From Escherichia phage P1, in sequence record MH445381.1: DNA of 64,000 nucleotides; one strand, 5' to 3'. Both the position numbers and the translations under genes were made by a program. Shown here in pieces: positions 12,032 through 58,381 of this stretch. Below the pieces are notes generated by a model. The model was given only the letters and a program-made list of their open reading frames with translations. It searched no databases and was not told the origin of the DNA. Position 1 is the first letter of the stretch. Each line of letters opens with the position of its first letter.

Positions 12032-12062
12032 TTGCACGACACTAATCTGCTCTAATAAATTT
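12032..12062 (+). promoter_or_regulatory. promoter with overlapping C1 operator-like 17-mer (P1 P51/Op51-like) driving c4-icd-ant
   Basis: TTGCAC -35-like element followed by TCTGCTCTAATAAATTT (15/17 to the P1 C1 operator consensus ATTGCTCTAATAAATTT). Confidence 0.5.
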
Positions 12063-12109
12063 GTATTTTTAAGTCGCGAATGCTATCTTTTCACATCATA
12101 TTGACCTTT

Positions 12110-12360
12110 TAATCGTTCAGGCTTATAGTGCCGCCGTCGTAGCAAATTCTGCGACCGGGTTTAGCAGCCTGAATACTTACGCGGACAACCGCAGATTTCC
12201 GATATTGCGGTATTTTTGTGTCCGTAAACCACGTTACGCCCGAATTATGGTGGGGCGTGATGGGGAGGCTTCGGCCTGCTGGTTTCGTAAGTGCCAGTCT
12301 GCTAACCCCGTCACGTCCTGCCACCTGTTTAGCAGCGGGTCGCAGGTTGTTTATCAACTT
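12110..12360 (+). ncRNA. c4: c4-like antisense immunity RNA region (boundaries not resolved)
   Basis: GC-rich structured non-coding stretch between the operator and icd, as in P1 immI. Confidence 0.35.
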
Positions 12361-12374
12361 ACGAGGCCGTAACT

Positions 12375-12596
12375 ATGGTTAATGCCAATCCTTGCGCACG
12401 CCAAGAATTCATCTGGCGTTTCTATTCCTGTAAAAAACACCACTATCACTTCGTTATCGCAGCAACAGAAGACGAAGCACGCTCTCAATTGCCTGACGGC
12501 CCCTGCATTTTTACTGCCCGTTTTTCAACTAACTCGCGCAATCCACTTAGTTACTGGAGCCTCCCCTTCTCTGCCGACGTTCAGGGGGGTTTATGA
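12375..12596 (+). CDS. icd: cell-division inhibitor Icd-like
   Basis: 73 aa, overlaps the start of the antirepressor gene as P1 icd does. Confidence 0.6.
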   Translation: MVNANPCARQEFIWRFYSCKKHHYHFVIAATEDEARSQLPDGPCIFTARFSTNSRNPLSYWSLPFSADVQGGL

Positions 12597-13636
12597 AAAA
12601 ACCTCTCGTCACCCGTAATGACATAGCCGAAGCGATCGCCCTGCATACTGCCTGTATGCCGACACGGGAGATCCCCGGCGCAATTGCCAACTATTTCATG
12701 ATAACCAGACGTTTTTATACCCGAACAGATAAGGCTGTGATCAACAAGCTACTGATAGCCGAGATCAGGGATTATTTGATTGAACAAGGACGTCTACGTT
12801 ACGCAACAGTGGCAGCAGAAATGAGAAAGGAGGCACATAGAATGACCGGTAATAATTTGAATGTTGAAAAAACAGCACCTGTTACGTCAGCTACGCCAGC
12901 ACCAGCCGTGAATATCATCCCCAACACCGGAGACACAATCGACAGCCTGACACTGTTAAAGATGGTCAATGAAGCGCGTAAGTTATGTGGGGAACCAGAG
13001 GTTCGGAACAACAAATTCATCGAAAAAATACTCGACGAATTAGAAGGTGAGGACGGTTACACAAAAAGTGCAACCGTGCCGCCAGGTGGCGGTACGCCTA
13101 TGGTTGTCATAACCATGACCTACAAACAAGCCCTGCGAGTCGCCGCACGCGAATCAAAAGCCGTCCGCCGTTCGCTGATCGACAAACTGGAAGAATTGCA
13201 GCAGGCAAACTCCCCTACCCCATCGATCCCCCAAACATTACCAGAAGCTCTACGCCTGGCTGCCGAGTTAGCAGAACAGAAAATGCAGCTGGAACAACAG
13301 CTGGTGGCCGCTGCCCCTAAAGTCGATTTTGCCGACCGGGTATCAGTGGCTAATGGAATCCTGATCGGGAACTTTGCAAAGGTCGTTGGACTTAAGCAAA
13401 ACGCCCTTTTCTCATGGTTGCGCCAGAACGGCATTCTCATGGCTTTTGGTGCGCGCAAAAACGTACCGCGCCAGCAGTATATTAACGCCGGGTATTTCAC
13501 AGTGAAAGAAGTGGTGCTGGATGATGAAAATGGCTACCAGATACGGCTGACGCCCCAATTAACGGGTAAAGGCCAGCAGTGGTTAACTCGCAAGCTACTT
13601 GATGCTGGTTTGTTAAAACCAGTAGCAATAGGTTAA
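12593..13636 (+). CDS. ant1: antirepressor (Ant1-like, KilA-C-type C-terminal domain)
   Basis: 347 aa; C-terminal LPEALRLAAELAEQK...ILIGNFAKVVGL...YFTVKE repeated in the next gene. Confidence 0.75.
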   Translation: MKKPLVTRNDIAEAIALHTACMPTREIPGAIANYFMITRRFYTRTDKAVINKLLIAEIRDYLIEQGRLRYATVAAEMRKEAHRMTGNNLNVEKTAPVTSATPAPAVNIIPNTGDTIDSLTLLKMVNEARKLCGEPEVRNNKFIEKILDELEGEDGYTKSATVPPGGGTPMVVITMTYKQALRVAARESKAVRRSLIDKLEELQQANSPTPSIPQTLPEALRLAAELAEQKMQLEQQLVAAAPKVDFADRVSVANGILIGNFAKVVGLKQNALFSWLRQNGILMAFGARKNVPRQQYINAGYFTVKEVVLDDENGYQIRLTPQLTGKGQQWLTRKLLDAGLLKPVAIG

Positions 13637-13647
13637 CAAAAGAAAAA

Positions 13648-13673
13648 AACCTGCCAGCAAACTGGCAGGTTTC
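13648..13673 (+). terminator. rho-independent terminator after ant
   Basis: Hairpin ACCTGCCAG-CAAA-CTGGCAGGT followed by TT. Confidence 0.6.
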
Positions 13674-13714
13674 TGAGCAGATCGTCCAACCCGATCTGGA
13701 TCGAGTCAGAAAAA

Positions 13715-13731
13715 TTTGCTCTAATAAATTT
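13715..13731 (+). promoter_or_regulatory. C1 operator-like site upstream of kilA (Op53-like)
   Basis: TTTGCTCTAATAAATTT, 16/17 to consensus. Confidence 0.65.
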
Positions 13732-13800
13732 CGTTTTCTAAGTGCAAAGAATCACCATTTCGAGCTGGTGATTGAAGGTTGATGCAAATTTGGAGAAAAA

Positions 13801-14601
13801 ATGCAACAAACATTCAATGCGGATATGAATATATCAAACCTTCATCAAAATGTCGATCCTTCAACCACTCTGCCTGTTATTTGTGGTGTTGAAATTACGA
13901 CCGACCGCGCTGGCCGTTACAACCTTAATGCTCTACACAGAGCGAGCGGACTCGGTGCCCATAAAGCGCCAGCTCAATGGCTAAGAACGCTGTCAGCCAA
14001 ACAGCTCATCGAAGAGCTTGAAAAAGAAACTATGCAGAATTGCATAGTTTCGTTCGAAGGCCGTGGCGGCGGCACTTTTGCCCATGAATTGCTCGCAGTG
14101 GAGTACGCAGGCTGGATTTCTCCCGCGTTTCGGCTGAAGGTAAACCAGACATTTATCGACTATCGAGCCGGAAGATTACAACCTGCTATTCCGAAGAGCC
14201 TCCCAGAAGCTCTCCGTTTGGCTGCTGACCTGGCAGAGCAAAAGCAACGGCTGGAGCAAAAAATGCTGATGGATGCACCTAAAGTCGAATTCGCCGAACG
14301 CGTTGCTACCGCCAGCGGGGTTCTAATCGGCAACTATGCCAAAGTGCTCGGCCTGGGCCAAAACTATCTCTTCACCTGGTTGCGTGATAACGGAATTCTG
14401 ATCGCAACCGGTGAACGCAGGAACGTCCCCAAACAAGAATACATATCCCGTGGGTATTTCACCCTTAAAGAAACCGTGATCGATACAAGCAATGGAAGCA
14501 GGATTTCTTTCACGACTCGTATAACCGGCAAAGGTCAGCAGTGGCTGATGAAGCGATTGCTTGATGCTGGTGTGCTGGTACCTGTCGCGGCAACGCGCTA
14601 A
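13801..14601 (+). CDS. kilA: KilA (KilA-N domain plus antirepressor-type C-terminal domain)
   Basis: 266 aa as P1 KilA; C-terminal half paralogous to Ant. Confidence 0.8.
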   Translation: MQQTFNADMNISNLHQNVDPSTTLPVICGVEITTDRAGRYNLNALHRASGLGAHKAPAQWLRTLSAKQLIEELEKETMQNCIVSFEGRGGGTFAHELLAVEYAGWISPAFRLKVNQTFIDYRAGRLQPAIPKSLPEALRLAADLAEQKQRLEQKMLMDAPKVEFAERVATASGVLIGNYAKVLGLGQNYLFTWLRDNGILIATGERRNVPKQEYISRGYFTLKETVIDTSNGSRISFTTRITGKGQQWLMKRLLDAGVLVPVAATR

Positions 14602-14630
14602 CAGACGTAGTAAGAACCACCAGCATTGTA

Positions 14631-15476
14631 ATGCTGGCTAAAGTCACTTTCCTGAGCTGTATAACGATGAGCGATTTTACTTTTTCTGGCTATGAATTGG
14701 CCTGCTTTGTAACACACTCCGGTCTATCCCGTAGCGCCGGGCATATCCTGTCGCAATGTGCAAATCTCGCGGCAACAACCAGTGAATACTTCATTCACAA
14801 GCCTCACCGCCTGATCGCGGCAGAAACTGGTTATAGCCAATCAACCGTCGTTCGTGCATTCCGTGAAGCTGTAAACAAAGGAATTCTGTCTGTAGAGATT
14901 GTTATCGGCGATCACCGTGAACGTCGCGCTAACCTGTACCGGTTTACACCATCCTTTTTGGCCTTCGCACAACAAGCCAAAAATGCGCTGATTGAAAGCA
15001 AATTAAAGATCTCTTCAGCGGCAACCAAGGTTAAAGCTGTTCTCGCTAAGACATTGGCTTTATTTAATTTTTTATCCACACCCCCATGTCAAAATGATAC
15101 CCCCTCCCCCTGTCAGGATGACGTGGCAATAAAGAATAAGAAGTCACAAGTTAAAAAAACAAAAAGATCAGTTTCCGGCGGTGCCGGAACGACCAGACTC
15201 AAAAAATTGACTTCATGGATCGCTGAGGCAAAAGCAAAGGCTGACAATCTGCGGTTATCCAAAAAACGCGCTCAAAAACATGAGTTCAAGCAGAAGGTAG
15301 AGGCGGCAGCGCGGAAATATGCTTACCTGAAGAACAAGCGTTCTCCTGATATTGGCGGGGTATCAAACTTCGATAATCTGCCGCATTGCATGACGGTAAA
15401 CGAAGCTCTTAATGCGGTTTTAGCCAAAAATAAAGATAACGAACAATGGGGTATACCGGCAGGATTCAGAGGGTGA
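14631..15476 (+). CDS. repL: lytic replicon initiator RepL
   Basis: 281 aa, directly downstream of kilA as in P1. Confidence 0.7.
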   Translation: MLAKVTFLSCITMSDFTFSGYELACFVTHSGLSRSAGHILSQCANLAATTSEYFIHKPHRLIAAETGYSQSTVVRAFREAVNKGILSVEIVIGDHRERRANLYRFTPSFLAFAQQAKNALIESKLKISSAATKVKAVLAKTLALFNFLSTPPCQNDTPSPCQDDVAIKNKKSQVKKTKRSVSGGAGTTRLKKLTSWIAEAKAKADNLRLSKKRAQKHEFKQKVEAAARKYAYLKNKRSPDIGGVSNFDNLPHCMTVNEALNAVLAKNKDNEQWGIPAGFRG

Positions 15477-15772
15477 TAGATTGCTCTAATCTGGAGTCAC
15501 CTGGCGTTTTCAGTTTGAGGTCGGAGATGCAATCTGATTTTTTACAGTTAGCGATCGCTTTTGCAGGATATGTTTGTATTGGCTTCTGTGTATACATGTT
15601 CAGCCGAAAAATGCTTGTCGATATCGACCGCAAAGAACAAGCAGAGGAGATCTTAGTATGGATTTTCTTTGGCGCGGTCTGGCCATTAGGGATCATGTTT
15701 GCTGCAACATTTCTTCTGATGTGGATATTCACCCTTCCAGGTGATTTCTATAGAAAAAAAGCCAGACATTGA
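15446..15772 (+). CDS. small membrane protein (possible start at MQSDF)
   Basis: Two hydrophobic segments; ORF-track coordinates. Confidence 0.3.
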   Translation: MGYTGRIQRVIDCSNLESPGVFSLRSEMQSDFLQLAIAFAGYVCIGFCVYMFSRKMLVDIDRKEQAEEILVWIFFGAVWPLGIMFAATFLLMWIFTLPGDFYRKKARH

Positions 15773-15895
15773 TACAATCGTTGCGGGTGCTTGAGGCTAT
15801 CTGCTTCAGGCATTACCCGAAAAGCAGATAGAAGAAAGCCCCAGATAACATTACGCGTCCTGCAAGACGCTTAACATTAATCTGAGGCCATATCT

Positions 15896-16102
15896 ATGCT
15901 TAGCATACGTAGATTAGCCTCTTACCGACCAAAAGGTCAAGGAGAAGCAGGCTATGAAGCAGCAAAAAGCGATGTTAATCGCTCTGATCGTCATCTGTTT
16001 AACCGTCATTGTGACGGCACTGGTAACGAGGAAAGACCTCTGCGAGGTACGAATCCGAACCGGCCAGACGGAGGTCACTGTCTTCACAGCCTACGAATCT
16101 GA
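15896..16102 (+). CDS. mok-like overlapping reading frame of the hok/gef locus
   Basis: 68-aa frame overlapping the hok ORF in another frame, as mok does in hok/sok loci. Confidence 0.5.
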   Translation: MLSIRRLASYRPKGQGEAGYEAAKSDVNRSDRHLFNRHCDGTGNEERPLRGTNPNRPDGGHCLHSLRI

Positions 16103-16109
16103 AAGGTAA
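15954..16109 (+). CDS. Hok/Gef-family type I toxin (51 aa)
   Basis: Manual translation MKQQKAMLIALIVICLTVIVTALVTRKDLCEVRIRTGQTEVTVFTAYESER; not in the ORF track (<60 aa). Confidence 0.85.
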   Translation: MKQQKAMLIALIVICLTVIVTALVTRKDLCEVRIRTGQTEVTVFTAYESER

Positions 16110-16187
16110 GAGACCTGGTGGGGAGAGATCCCCGCCACTCTTAGTGTGTCAGGTATCCTCAATGCACCCTTTCATCTCCAAATAAAA

Positions 16188-16205
16188 AAGCTCCCGAAGG
16201 AGCTT
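16188..16205 (-). terminator. terminator hairpin between hok and the convergent structural gene
   Basis: AAGCTCC-CGAA-GGAGCTT with T-run on the minus strand. Confidence 0.55.
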
Positions 16206-16225
16206 TAAAATACAAGGGATGACTC

Positions 16226-16735
16226 TTAATCCCACTCAATCCAGTTGTAGACGATACGAAGTGACGGGCGCACAGCGGCAGTCACATCTTCGGTACTAAA
16301 GTCGATTGCATCACTGTAGATTTTGCAGTCCAACATTTCAATTGTTGTAGCAGCTTTTGTCACAGCGTTAACCCCGGAAGATTTGGATTCAGGGGTAGCA
16401 GCCATCGTGATATCAACATAGTCCTTCGCCGCAATGCGATCCTTGATGAACTGAAGAATATCGCCTTCGATAGTCTCCACGCACTGGACCTGGATTTCCC
16501 CAGAGTTTCGAATTGGTCCGTGCTGGTTGAACTTCACACCATTCGGACCATAGTCCTCCACATCCTCGCGGGTCATTTCAGGAATTTGCGACGTGCGAAC
16601 CAGTACGCTGATATCTTCATGGCCTGCAAAAGTGAGCTGGAATTCAGAAGATACCAGTCGTTCGCCTTTGGCCGCGTTGGCAGTATAGCGGCCCTTAATA
16701 AATTTACGGTTTCCCTTAGTGTTATTGTGCCCCAT
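16226..16735 (-). CDS. virion structural protein (tail/baseplate block)
   Basis: 169-aa ORF co-oriented with the sheath gene. Confidence 0.4.
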   Translation of the reverse strand: MGHNNTKGNRKFIKGRYTANAAKGERLVSSEFQLTFAGHEDISVLVRTSQIPEMTREDVEDYGPNGVKFNQHGPIRNSGEIQVQCVETIEGDILQFIKDRIAAKDYVDITMAATPESKSSGVNAVTKAATTIEMLDCKIYSDAIDFSTEDVTAAVRPSLRIVYNWIEWD

Positions 16736-51433: not shown

Positions 51434-52021
51434 GTGGTTTTTGCAAAAAGCCCAGCGCGGCGCAAAACCGCTGGAAAAACCATTTGCGCACTAAAGGAGA
51501 GTGATATGGCGTTAACACACCGCGAACTCTGTCAGATTGCGTACAAGTTCCTTAAGCGCAACGGGTTCAAGGTTTGTTTTCATGACCGCTTTATAGCTGT
51601 AACCAGTACCGGAGAACAGCCAGATGCTATGGGGTTCAGAAATTCAGCATCATGCCTGATAGAGGCGAAGTGTTCTCGTGCTGATTTGTTGGCAGATAGA
51701 AAAAAGCGTTTTCGTAAAAATCCGTCTCTTGGAATGGGCGACTGGCGATTCTTTATTAGTGAGCCGGGAATTATTTCAATTGAGGATTTACCACCTGGCT
51801 GGGGATTACTTCACGTTGTTAACGGAAGAGTACGGAAAGTACATGGGTGGCCCAAGGGTAATTGCTGTTGGGGTAACCCTGAAGATAAACCTTTTATTGG
51901 GAATAAGCAGGTTGAATGCGATTACATGTTATCTGCATTAAGGCGCATGGAGTTGAGAGGGCACCTTAATGAAATATATGACGGTGTAATTGTTAATAAG
52001 AAAGAAGGAAACGCGGCATGA
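51434..52021 (+). CDS. putative PD-(D/E)xK-type nuclease (probable start MALTHREL)
   Basis: GEQPDAMGF...CLIEAKCSRADL. Confidence 0.35.
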   Translation: MVFAKSPARRKTAGKTICALKESDMALTHRELCQIAYKFLKRNGFKVCFHDRFIAVTSTGEQPDAMGFRNSASCLIEAKCSRADLLADRKKRFRKNPSLGMGDWRFFISEPGIISIEDLPPGWGLLHVVNGRVRKVHGWPKGNCCWGNPEDKPFIGNKQVECDYMLSALRRMELRGHLNEIYDGVIVNKKEGNAA

Positions 52022-52875
52022 TCACTATTACCAAAGAGCGACTGCTGACAATCAAGCAGTGGCGCGAAACATACGGACCTGATAGCAACGTTGTACTGCC
52101 AGCAGAAGAAGCGGAAGAACTGGCGCGTATCGTGCTGGCATCGCTGGAAGCAGAGCCTGTTCTGTATCAGTCCTGCACTCGCCCCACCTGGAATAGCGGT
52201 GTTCCGTGGACGGAATGGAAAGAACGTAGTCGTGAGTGCTACGAAGACGATTTGCGTTTTACAGACACGCCTGACCATGCCGGTTGGATATACAAATGTC
52301 GAAAACTATATACCACTCCGCCAGCGCCGATAGCGTTAGAGGCCATTGAAAACGCAATTGAATACATTCGTAGTATCGCTTTTCACATCGATGAAGACGA
52401 TTACCACGGCAAACATATTGCGTATTTCATGCGACAAGCATTGGCCTGGCTGGAAGGGCATTCATGCAGCGACGACAGACTGGGTAAAGCCGACAATCAA
52501 CCAGTACGCGGCAACCAGGCTGCCGAATCCAATCGCGGTAATGAGTGGACCGGCAATCCTGATATTGATAACGCAATCATCATGCTCGACCGCATAGATA
52601 CGGCGGAAAGTTACGATGATGACCGTATTGAGGCTGTTAAGGCTGTTTTGCGTAGACTGGCAGGCAACTCTCCGGTAACTCCGGATGGTTGGATAAGCTG
52701 TAGTGAGCGAATGCCCCCTCAAGATGATTGGATTTTAATTTATTCAAAGCACGGCGAGTATATGGCAGGACAGGTACAAGGGGAATACGTGGAGTTGAGC
52801 GACGGCACTTTATCGTGGTTAGGGAACGCCTTGTTCTGGATGCCGCTACCAGAACCGCCGCAGGAGGCGAAATGA
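52018..52875 (+). CDS. prophage protein with DUF551-like C-terminus
   Basis: C-terminal W...LPEPP pattern. Confidence 0.4.
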   Translation: MITITKERLLTIKQWRETYGPDSNVVLPAEEAEELARIVLASLEAEPVLYQSCTRPTWNSGVPWTEWKERSRECYEDDLRFTDTPDHAGWIYKCRKLYTTPPAPIALEAIENAIEYIRSIAFHIDEDDYHGKHIAYFMRQALAWLEGHSCSDDRLGKADNQPVRGNQAAESNRGNEWTGNPDIDNAIIMLDRIDTAESYDDDRIEAVKAVLRRLAGNSPVTPDGWISCSERMPPQDDWILIYSKHGEYMAGQVQGEYVELSDGTLSWLGNALFWMPLPEPPQEAK

Positions 52876-53132
52876 TGGATGTAAAAGAGAAGGTTTTGCA
52901 GGTGATGCGTTCCCGGGCTGCCCTGCAAGATAAAGCTCTCGGCGGGGAATATCCATTCAGGATGGCAACCTGGAATCTGCGGTTGGCAATGGAGAAGGAA
53001 TTTCCTGATGAAGAATGGCGTTCGGCAGATTTGCGCAAAATTCTTATGGAGCTGGCTAAAGACGGAACAGTATCCAAAGATACCCATGCCAGCCGGATTG
53101 GTCAGGCGGTATGGAGACTGGAGGTGAGGTAA
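52728..53132 (+). CDS. hypothetical protein (probable start MMDVKEK, ~52872)
   Basis: ORF-track frame. Confidence 0.3.
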   Translation: MDFNLFKARRVYGRTGTRGIRGVERRHFIVVRERLVLDAATRTAAGGEMMDVKEKVLQVMRSRAALQDKALGGEYPFRMATWNLRLAMEKEFPDEEWRSADLRKILMELAKDGTVSKDTHASRIGQAVWRLEVR

Positions 53133-53413
53133 TGGCTAACCTGCAACTTGCCGTTAAAGGTGAATACTTCGATGCCATGATTCGCGGGGAGAAAACGGAA
53201 GAGTATCGCCTGTGTAATGACTACTGGAATAAGCGCCTCGTTAACCGTAAGTATTACCGCCTGATTATCACAAAGGGATATCCGAAGCGCGAAGACTTCA
53301 GTCGCAGAATTGACGTCCCGTATAACGGATATGAAATAAAAACAATCACACATCCACACTTCGGTGATAAACCGGTAAAGGTGTTCGCGATAAAAGTGAA
53401 GATTAATAGCTAA
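53111..53413 (+). CDS. small ASCH/PUA-like protein
   Basis: LAVKGEYFDAMIRGEKTEEYR. Confidence 0.4.
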   Translation: METGGEVMANLQLAVKGEYFDAMIRGEKTEEYRLCNDYWNKRLVNRKYYRLIITKGYPKREDFSRRIDVPYNGYEIKTITHPHFGDKPVKVFAIKVKINS

Positions 53414-57773: not shown

Positions 57774-58001
57774 GTGTTTATGCAATCCATTAACTTCCGT
57801 ACCGCGCGTGGCAACCTTTCTGAAGTGCTCAACAATGTTGAAGCCGGGGAAGAGGTTGAAATCACCCGCAGAGGCCGTGAGCCAGCAGTAATTGTCAGCA
57901 AGGCTACTTTCGAAGCCTACAAAAAAGCGGCGCTGGATGCTGAATTTGCATCCCTGTTTGACACCCTGGACTCCACCAACAAGGAACTGGTTAACCGATA
58001 A
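57774..58001 (+). CDS. phd: Phd antitoxin
   Basis: 73 aa, [39 protein letters not shown]. Confidence 0.9.
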
Positions 58002-58381
58002 TGAGGCATATATCACCGGAAGAACTTATTGCGCTTCATGATGCGAATATAAGCCGCTACGGCGGCCTGCCGGGAATGTCTGATCCGGGTAGGGCAGAGG
58101 CCATTATCGGGAGAGTTCAGGCCAGAGTTGCCTACGAAGAGATCACCGACCTTTTCGAAGTCTCTGCCACCTACCTGGTGGCTACAGCGAGAGGGCATAT
58201 ATTCAATGATGCCAATAAGCGTACCGCGCTAAACAGTGCGCTGCTATTTCTACGCCGTAACGGGGTGCAGGTATTTGATTCACCTGAACTGGCAGACCTT
58301 ACCGTAGGCGCTGCGACTGGCGAGATATCTGTATCTTCTGTCGCCGACACGTTACGTAGATTGTATGGTTCTGCGGAGTAG
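58001..58381 (+). CDS. doc: Doc toxin (Fic-fold kinase)
   Basis: 126 aa; overlaps phd stop; [11 protein letters not shown] motif. Confidence 0.9.

Follow-up and report, generated by a model that had tools for sequence, protein, structure and literature searches.

The 64,000-nt stretch of Escherichia phage P1 DNA analysed here (the window; record MH445381.1) very probably carries an intact hok/mok/sok type I toxin-antitoxin (TA) system of the prophage-type hokD/hokW lineage, borne by a P1-like phage-plasmid as cargo of its variable region 5 and most likely helping to maintain the low-copy plasmid prophage alongside phd-doc. The locus is an ordinary, complete hok/sok copy in a spot already known to be prone to swapping, and an Rfam search of the 64 kb detected only this one, the other matches being the P1 C4 RNA and three tRNAs.

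The near-canonical Hok/Gef toxin that an earlier note on this DNA had proposed was borne out, each of the three checks suggested there giving a supporting result. The 51-aa product (MKQQKAMLIALIVICLTVIVTALVTRKDLCEVRIRTGQTEVTVFTAYESER) matched all 42 profile positions of the Pfam family HOK_GEF (PF01848; 78.7 bits, E 2.4e-22, against a cut-off of 22 bits) as well as PHROG 251, 'MokW-like host killing' (E 4.9e-32), and aligned end-to-end and without gaps to HokC/Gef of K-12 (41/50 identities, 82%). Its sequence displays a single N-terminal hydrophobic helix (stretch LIALIVICLTVIVTALV) and two cysteines, Cys15 and Cys30. The first-stage ORF track had missed this gene because it has only 51 codons. 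Its reading as a chance small ORF with no underlying gene was refuted by the Pfam match, the full-length HokC alignment and an Rfam match of 114.9 bits, and with conserved copies numbering in the hundreds we regard its likelihood as practically nil. Length-filtered ORF tracks overlook short type I toxin genes of this kind.

The gene is not newly spotted, since hundreds of public records already list it as hokD or MokW. Two GenBank 'P1' records (MH422554 labels the gene 'MokW') match the 901 bp surrounding the locus at 100% identity, as do many plasmids of E. coli, E. fergusonii and Salmonella, in which PGAP names the identical protein (WP_001313475.1) 'type I toxin-antitoxin system toxin HokD'. 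Matches of the peptide to the Hok-family models of NCBIfam were all below threshold (49.5 bits vs a cut-off of 73), so the PGAP name 'HokD' seems to derive from a naming route other than these models. Likewise known are the family and the way it works, that it is enriched in phages and prophages (bioRxiv 10.1101/2025.08.07.668861) and that it is present at the same spot in P1-like plasmids. A literature search for hok named as such in P1-like elements found no such paper. Beyond correct annotation, the finding is of little importance.

A viral contig scan returned at least 576 close relatives of the cassette; the structure alignment comprised 67 distinct 430-nt regions, and RNAalifold was run on the 64 non-identical relatives. 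The hok coding region was the most conserved part of the cassette in this alignment (mean column entropy of 0.06 vs 0.19 for the whole mRNA). The Tyr47 codon of hok lies within CCUACGAAU, a TadA editing context in which recoding of Tyr to Cys has been reported for hokC, hokD and hokE (PMC12214031).

A 68-aa mok-like frame overlapping hok, also put forward in the earlier note, was present in the ORF listing (Table 1). Its ATG lies 58 nt 5' of the hok ATG in a different frame, is preceded at a distance of 8 nt by the Shine-Dalgarno (SD) sequence GAGG (15884-15887), aligns with the annotated starts of mokW and mokC and is kept in 66 of the 67 relatives. Translational coupling of mok and hok is predicted from this SD and from the passage of the mok ORF through the hok start; in plasmid R1, mok translation is required only as far as that start (PMC9841398). 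The lambdoid type, K-12 hokC and an IncFII R1-type allele have an in-frame mok at 57 nt (70-71 aa), whereas the P1-type allele carries one more base in a small hairpin that is located between the two starts and whose stem is still paired (GACC-AAAA-GGTC vs TGCC-GAAA-GGCA), and this 58-nt allele was restricted to loci with P1 flanks. We rejected the out-of-frame mok as an oddity, since R1 itself shows the 58-nt offset (mok start at 116-118, hok start at 174-176, 70-aa Mok; PMC9841398), and the frame difference therefore falls inside the known range of the family.

Predicted structure of the hok mRNA and its antisense RNA

Table 1. Positions in the window of the genes, RNA elements and segment discussed in the text
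Feature	Position	Strand	Basis
Segment replacing P1 rlfA-rlfB-pmgF	15491-16183		blastn vs NC_005856; 693 bp
hok/mok mRNA promoter	15751-15778	+	Consensus scan; -35 TAGAAA (15751-15756), 16 nt, -10 TACAAT (15773-15778), TG at 15770-15771
tac element GGGTGCTTGAGG	15785-15796	+	5' end of hok mRNA; MFE and RNAalifold pairing
Leader stem-loop CTATCTGCTT ... AAGCAGATAG	15797-15831	+	Sequence, MFE fold, RF01794 stem
ucb / anti-SD box GCCCCAGAT	15838-15846	+	Pairs with 15880-15888 (MFE, RNAalifold, RF01794)
mok SD and alternative SD/dcb hairpin GAGGC ... GCCTC (15917-15921)	15884-15921	+	Sequence, RF01794 stem
mok leader ORF	15896-16102	+	ORF listing; 68 codons, overlaps hok
Sok antisense RNA (predicted)	about 15904-15830	-	sokC/SokW end mapping and fold; about 71-77 nt
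Sok promoter (predicted)	15940-15911	-	-35 TTGACC (15940-15935), 18-nt spacer, -10 TAATCT (15916-15911)
hok toxin ORF	15954-16109	+	ORF listing; 51 aa
GC-rich 3' hairpin GGTGGGGAGAGATCCCCGCC	about 16117-16137	+	Stem in full-length, truncated and consensus folds
fbi element CCTCAATGCACCC	16157-16169	+	Complementary to tac; MFE and RNAalifold pairing
Hairpin AAAGCTCC-CGAA-GGAGCTTT	16187-16206	both	P1 backbone; minus-strand bplB terminator (terminator scan)

All 67 relatives have a -10-like hexamer (TAGAAT, TACAAT, TAAGAT and others) at the site of the hok promoter, and we infer that the transcript starts at G15785, where the Rfam model RF01794 begins as well. This model matched the 5' leader of the mRNA over its full length in both sequence and structure (114.9 bits; gathering score of 59); it is oriented as the sense hok leader, its consensus ends at the hok AUG and it holds the inverted-repeat stem, the ucb/SD stem and the SD/dcb hairpin.

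In the full-length MFE fold (-165.7 kcal/mol, z = -8.3) the tac sequence GGGUGCUUGAGG pairs with the fbi sequence CCUCAAUGCACCC over 11-12 bp, a stem that also appears in the RNAalifold consensus and is retained in 64/64 relatives. The tac box is invariant in the 67 relatives, among which fbi reads CCTCAA(C/T)GCACCC. Covariation between tac and fbi was looked for and none was found, since neither box varies among the 64 relatives, all of them close. When the RNA was truncated at its 3' side the 5' end refolded locally, matching the forms known from R1 as metastable and open (PMC9841398).

The 10-bp inverted repeat of the earlier note is exact and paired in the fold (CTATCTGCTT at 15797-15806 with AAGCAGATAG at 15822-15831), but rather than lying upstream, as the note had it, it spans +13 to +47 of the leader, where it forms a stem conserved in the family. 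Compensatory changes are seen at two of its pairs (AU to GC in 8 and CG to UA in 11 relatives). Similar changes were found in the ucb/SD stem (three sequences), in a hairpin of the coding region (GC to AU in 11 sequences) and in the GC-rich 3' hairpin (GC to AU in 12 relatives). Compensatory double changes affected 7 of the 102 consensus pairs, several of them separating the P1 type from the lambdoid type, and provide evidence that the hok mRNA structure is under selection. With roles assigned from R1 (PMC9841398), ucb would sequester the ribosome-binding site of mok in the full-length RNA, and the SD/dcb hairpin would be the hairpin that Sok targets in the processed mRNA. The 3' hairpin probably stabilises or protects the 3' end of the processed mRNA; its equivalent in R1 guards against 3' exonucleases (PMC9841398).

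The 3' end of the hok transcript can be placed only tentatively, as the hairpin that follows (16187-16206) is part of the P1 backbone and convincing as a terminator on the minus strand only; on the plus strand, with its weak U-tract, it probably acts as the end of the hok transcript. Another terminator-like hairpin was found at 15729-15744.

A Sok-like RNA was expected on the opposite strand over the mok start, and the curated ends of K-12 sokC indeed map there, to 15904 (5') and 15828 (3'), as does the SokW annotation of phage 933W (about 15904-15834). The predicted RNA folds into a single-stranded 5' tail of 15 nt, the complement of the region around the mok start, and a long hairpin that would serve as terminator, followed by UUUCUUCU (-30.4 kcal/mol, z = -4.56). 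Its promoter hexamers are positionally homologous to those of sokW (TTGCCT-17-TAACCT in 933W), of which the -10 has been inactivated experimentally (PMC8621323), and to their counterparts in an R1-type locus (TTGCGC-17-TATCCT). A strict sigma-70 scan did not flag this promoter, the -10 of which agrees with the consensus at 3/6 positions and follows an 18-nt spacer, nor did a strict terminator scan flag the Sok terminator, so both are predicted from homology to sokC/sokW and from folding. An Rfam 'sok' match was not accepted on its own as proof of the antisense gene, since the model represents the plus-strand hok leader; on the minus strand RF01794 scored 21 bits, under its threshold. Positions 15899-15908 are the most variable 10 nt of the mRNA among the relatives and coincide with the Sok 5' tail and its target.

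A replaced segment in variable region 5

As the earlier note had placed it between repL and the sheath block, the cassette is flanked on its 5' side by repL (14631-15476) and on its 3' side by bplB (16226-16735, minus strand), after which come pmgG, gp21 and the sheath gene. A blastn comparison with reference P1 (NC_005856) aligned window positions 12048-15490 with P1 48142-51585 and 16184-19500 with P1 53412-56728, these common flanks (repL to P1 51585 and bplB from 53412) being 96.5-97.4% identical. Reference P1 lacks hok and carries rlfA, rlfB and pmgF between them (51586-53411, 1826 bp); these genes are absent from the window, where they are replaced by a 693-bp segment in which the hok cassette (about 15773-16169) follows a small ORF for a membrane protein (15527-15772). 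The C1 operator Op55 is truncated at the left junction, with 11 of its 17 bases left (ATTGCTCTAAT), and the window differs from the reference arrangement of rlfA-rlfB-pmgF with an intact Op55. The membrane-protein ORF encodes 81 aa and matches PHROG 3772.

The rlfA-rlfB-pmgF interval has been defined as variable region 5 of P1-like phage-plasmids (PMC9603915), and the same substitution was noted by Venturini et al. (2019), whose sole description of it reads '2 orfs including antibacterial toxin' (PMC6906374). At least 80% of the 693-bp segment is present in 255 plasmids of PLSDB, as against 99 with the reference-P1 allele, which makes the hok allele the commoner one in this collection and that of the laboratory reference P1 a minority allele at this spot. 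A further group of about 350 related P1-like plasmids has only part of the segment; two sampled matches of this group stop at the 3' hairpin, where the one examined has an insertion of the IS421 family (IS186-like). While many relatives are interrupted, the locus in the window contains neither an IS element nor a stop codon. The loop of the 3' hairpin (GGAGAGATCC) is a recurrent IS186/IS421 target, with insertions in K-12 hokC, in two P1-like contigs (L012 and L021) and in one plasmid (L087), and this loop sequence also makes up the 10-bp direct repeat that was reported to accompany IS186B in pSvP1 (PMC6906374).

The partial segments bear on whether the module, even with its sequence intact, might be inert hitch-hiking cargo with no killing competence in its native context, given that so many plasmids evidently tolerate the loss of an intact locus; chromosomal hok genes, too, have been found not to kill after plasmid loss or rifampicin treatment (bioRxiv 10.1101/2025.08.07.668861). 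Recurrent IS knock-outs would, however, fit just as well with a locus that imposes a cost through being active, and the full segment is kept by the 255 plasmids mentioned above. Every regulatory element is present in the window, the RNA structure shows compensatory changes, the toxin coding region is conserved more than any other part of the cassette (entropy 0.06 vs 0.19), and the close relative hokW-sokW is active (PMC8621323). We therefore consider inert cargo very unlikely.

The second addiction module anticipated in the earlier note, phd-doc, was located at about 57780-58381 on the plus strand, with a Phd ORF and a Doc ORF containing the Fic motif HIFNDANKR, so that the element is predicted from its genes to carry two such modules. 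Natural P1-like phage-plasmids, many of which bear resistance genes, mostly have hok/sok at this spot in addition to phd-doc, a combination that could aid their stable carriage.

Comparison with characterized hok/sok systems

The nearest known systems, hokW-mokW-sokW of the Stx phages 933W and Sp5 (VT2-Sakai) and hokD (relF) of the K-12 Qin prophage, share the cassette length and the order of elements with the window, have Sok at the same place and identical or nearly identical tac, ucb, SD, dcb and fbi boxes, and encode a Hok that differs from ours by a few residues. Lambdoid cassettes (933W, Sp5/VT2-Sakai, Rac and others) display 87.8-91.3% nucleotide identity over window positions 15773-16169 (about 88% for hokW-sokW), the homology stopping at fbi. 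Experimentally, hokW-sokW is an established type I TA system, the antitoxin of which requires the promoter of sokW as well as RNase III and Hfq (PMC8621323). These systems reside in integrated lambdoid phages, whereas the host of the window cassette is a plasmid prophage, and the flanks are unrelated. The small hairpin reads GACCAAAAGGTC in the window against TGCCGAAAGGCA, giving a mok of 58 nt/68 aa out of frame instead of 57 nt/70 aa in frame, and the same extra-base change results in the -35 TTGACC and 18-nt spacer of the window Sok promoter. The Sok 5' tail and its target also differ between them, so cross-neutralisation between the window Sok and the hokW/hokD systems would not be assured.

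Plasmid R1 hok/mok/sok (parB), the paradigm of the family, has the same architecture and logic, including the tac/fbi pairing predicted here. Both share the 5' end GG(G/C)(U/G)CUUGAGGCU, the anti-SD box GCCCC, the mok SD GAGG, the dcb box GCCUCUUACC, the hok SD and start AAGGAGAAG..GGC.AUG and the 58-nt offset between mok and hok, although R1 Hok shows only 44% identity to HokW (PMC8621323), which is nearly identical to the window Hok. Compared with R1, the window has a longer Sok hairpin and a shorter leader loop; the R1 transcript has its own strong terminator, whereas the nearest hairpin in the window is part of the P1 backbone. For R1, there is proof of killing after plasmid loss.

K-12 hokC (gef)-mokC-sokC encodes a Hok that is 82% identical over its full length, and the sokC ends map cleanly on the window. 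Its Sok hairpin is 18 nt shorter and mokC is in frame with hokC. An IS186 element just 3' of the 3' hairpin has removed fbi from K-12 hokC, in contrast to the uninterrupted copy of the window.

Proposed mechanism and biological role

In R1, a stable mRNA is inert until slow 3' trimming, unstable Sok blocks translation of mok and hence of hok, and the duplex decays (PMC9841398). The genes, sequence elements and conserved pairings described above suggest a similar scheme for the window, for which RNA half-lives, processing, killing and biological role are extrapolated by homology with R1 hok/sok and Sp5 hokW-sokW. A weak constitutive promoter would produce a stable hok mRNA of about 390-425 nt, in the closed form of which tac (5') and fbi (3') would be paired and the mok ribosome-binding site buried by the anti-SD box, so that the full-length RNA would neither be translated nor bound by Sok. 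Slow trimming of the 3' end would then remove fbi, and the 5' end would refold, exposing the mok SD and start codon in a hairpin. As long as the element is present, the predicted short-lived antisense Sok, transcribed from within mok, would pair with the exposed region and switch off translation of mok and, through coupling, of hok, after which the duplex would be destroyed. Once the supply of Sok stops, mok and hok would be translated and the 51-aa Hok would enter the inner membrane, killing or arresting the cell.

Killing upon loss of Sok has been shown for R1 (PMC9841398) and toxicity for hokW (PMC8621323), and the likely roles of the window cassette are post-segregational killing, assistance with lysis upon induction, or both. 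Chromosomal hokA, hokB and hokC reportedly gave neither post-segregational nor rifampicin killing (Pedersen and Gerdes, 1999, summarised in bioRxiv 10.1101/2025.08.07.668861); since they belong to the same broad clade, a plasmid-stabilising role of the window cassette cannot be assumed.

It is possible, although we lean against it, that the main job of the same intact module is lytic, in that induction would lower Sok, Hok would be made and membrane damage would aid lysis and phage release. The cassette is a member of the hokW/hokD lineage of prophages (see the 87.8-91.3% identity to lambdoid copies), in which mitomycin C lowered sokW RNA and raised HokW in the Stx2 prophage Sp5, and deletion of hokW-sokW halved the release of this phage (PMC8621323). 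It also lies directly 3' of the C1-repressed lytic operon kilA-repL, in the same orientation. However, the effect in Sp5 was just two-fold, and the terminator-like hairpin at 15729-15744 together with the cassette's own promoter suggests autonomous expression. P1 moreover encodes a holin, an antiholin and an endolysin of its own. Such a role is compatible with plasmid maintenance, which we retain as the preferred explanation.

A primary function of the same module in abortive-infection defence, by which an invader that stops host transcription would let Sok decay and Hok kill the cell early, appears unlikely, no feature of the locus being specific to defence. The R1 hok/sok system is said, from work by Pecota and Wood in 1996, to exclude T4. 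Phage defence is among the functions of TA systems and prophages often carry defence genes, but a survey of Hok loci found that hok is not enriched beside defence systems (bioRxiv 10.1101/2025.08.07.668861).

Beyond plasmid maintenance, the placement of the cassette might wire hok to P1 induction, with read-through from the derepressed kilA-repL operon freeing Hok as a helper of lysis or its timing, an idea that we regard as decidedly unlikely. The C1 operator usually found after repL is truncated; upon derepression, transcripts would run head-on into the Sok promoter, and this read-through would yield 5'-extended hok transcripts unable to form the tac/fbi lock. If true, such wiring would explain the loss of Sok on induction that has been seen, yet left unexplained, for hokW-sokW of Sp5.

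Variability of the Sok target and the mok-hok interval

Across 64 distinct relatives, variability along the hok mRNA as a whole peaks in a 10-nt stretch corresponding to mok codons 2-4, that is, the 5' tail of the antisense RNA Sok together with its target (mean column entropy 0.91, vs 0.19 overall). This peak of variability suggests, from sequence comparison, that antitoxin specificity has diversified between co-resident hok/sok loci.

In a comparison of the window with relatives L006-L023 and L040, the small hairpin that separates the mok start from the hok start has one base more in the P1-type allele. The resulting mok-hok spacing of 58 nt, as in R1, places mok out of frame; at the 57 nt of the lambdoid allele, K-12 hokC and one IncFII R1-type allele, it is in frame. 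The extra base also gives a better predicted Sok -35 (TTGACC) with a longer spacer (18 nt). The Rfam 'sok antitoxin' model, RF01794, represents the hok mRNA leader in the sense orientation, its consensus stopping at the hok AUG, so its matches lie on the other strand from the real Sok RNA, a reversal to be borne in mind for automated annotations.

Features of the replacement segment and its left junction (window positions)
Feature	Position	Strand	Remarks
C1 operator Op55/Orlf	15480-15496		interrupted
81-aa ORF	15527-15772	+	PHROG 3772 (function unknown), WP_001702262.1; two or three hydrophobic segments
Terminator-like hairpin	15729-15744		weak
RF01794 match	15785-15959	+	Rfam
Most variable stretch	15899-15908
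Small hairpin with extra base	15926-15938		P1-type allele
CCUACGAAU	16090-16098		includes CUACGAA
Tyr47 codon (TAC)	16092-16094		hok
IS186/IS421 site	16122-16131		GGAGAGATCC

The replacement segment in P1-like elements

In sequenced plasmids (PLSDB), the hok allele of P1 variable region 5 (query, window 15491-16183; n=255) outnumbered the reference-P1 allele, rlfA-rlfB-pmgF (query, P1 51594-53409; n=99), about 2.5-fold. The inserted segment's other half is the 81-aa ORF; it accompanies hok in P1-like elements only, and its 3' end contains the predicted hok -35. At the left junction, the replacement interrupts the P1 C1-repressor operator Op55/Orlf, of which ATTGCTCTAAT is retained. Because the operator is cut and its last six bases are exchanged, the C1 control that P1 exerts after repL, whatever its nature, has probably been lost in the window allele.

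The 3' part of the hok mRNA

The stem and loop of the hok 3' hairpin form a recurrent IS186/IS421 insertion site, occupied in K-12 hokC (L005) and several P1-like plasmids (loci L012, L021 and L087); insertion here cuts fbi, the 3' element predicted to pair with the 5' tac, off from the mRNA. The 10-bp direct repeat reported for IS186B in pSvP1, GGATCTCTCC, has the same sequence as this site. About 350 PLSDB plasmids matched the inserted segment partially, and the two such matches sampled both stop at the site (window 16132). The copy in the window is uninterrupted.

The hok Tyr47 codon sits inside CCUACGAAU, and the CUACGAA within it is the anticodon-loop sequence of tRNA-Arg(ACG) recognised by TadA. 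A-to-I editing that changes the corresponding Tyr to Cys has been reported for the mRNAs of hokC, hokD and hokE (PMC12214031). Such editing at Tyr47 would give Hok a second periplasmic cysteine.
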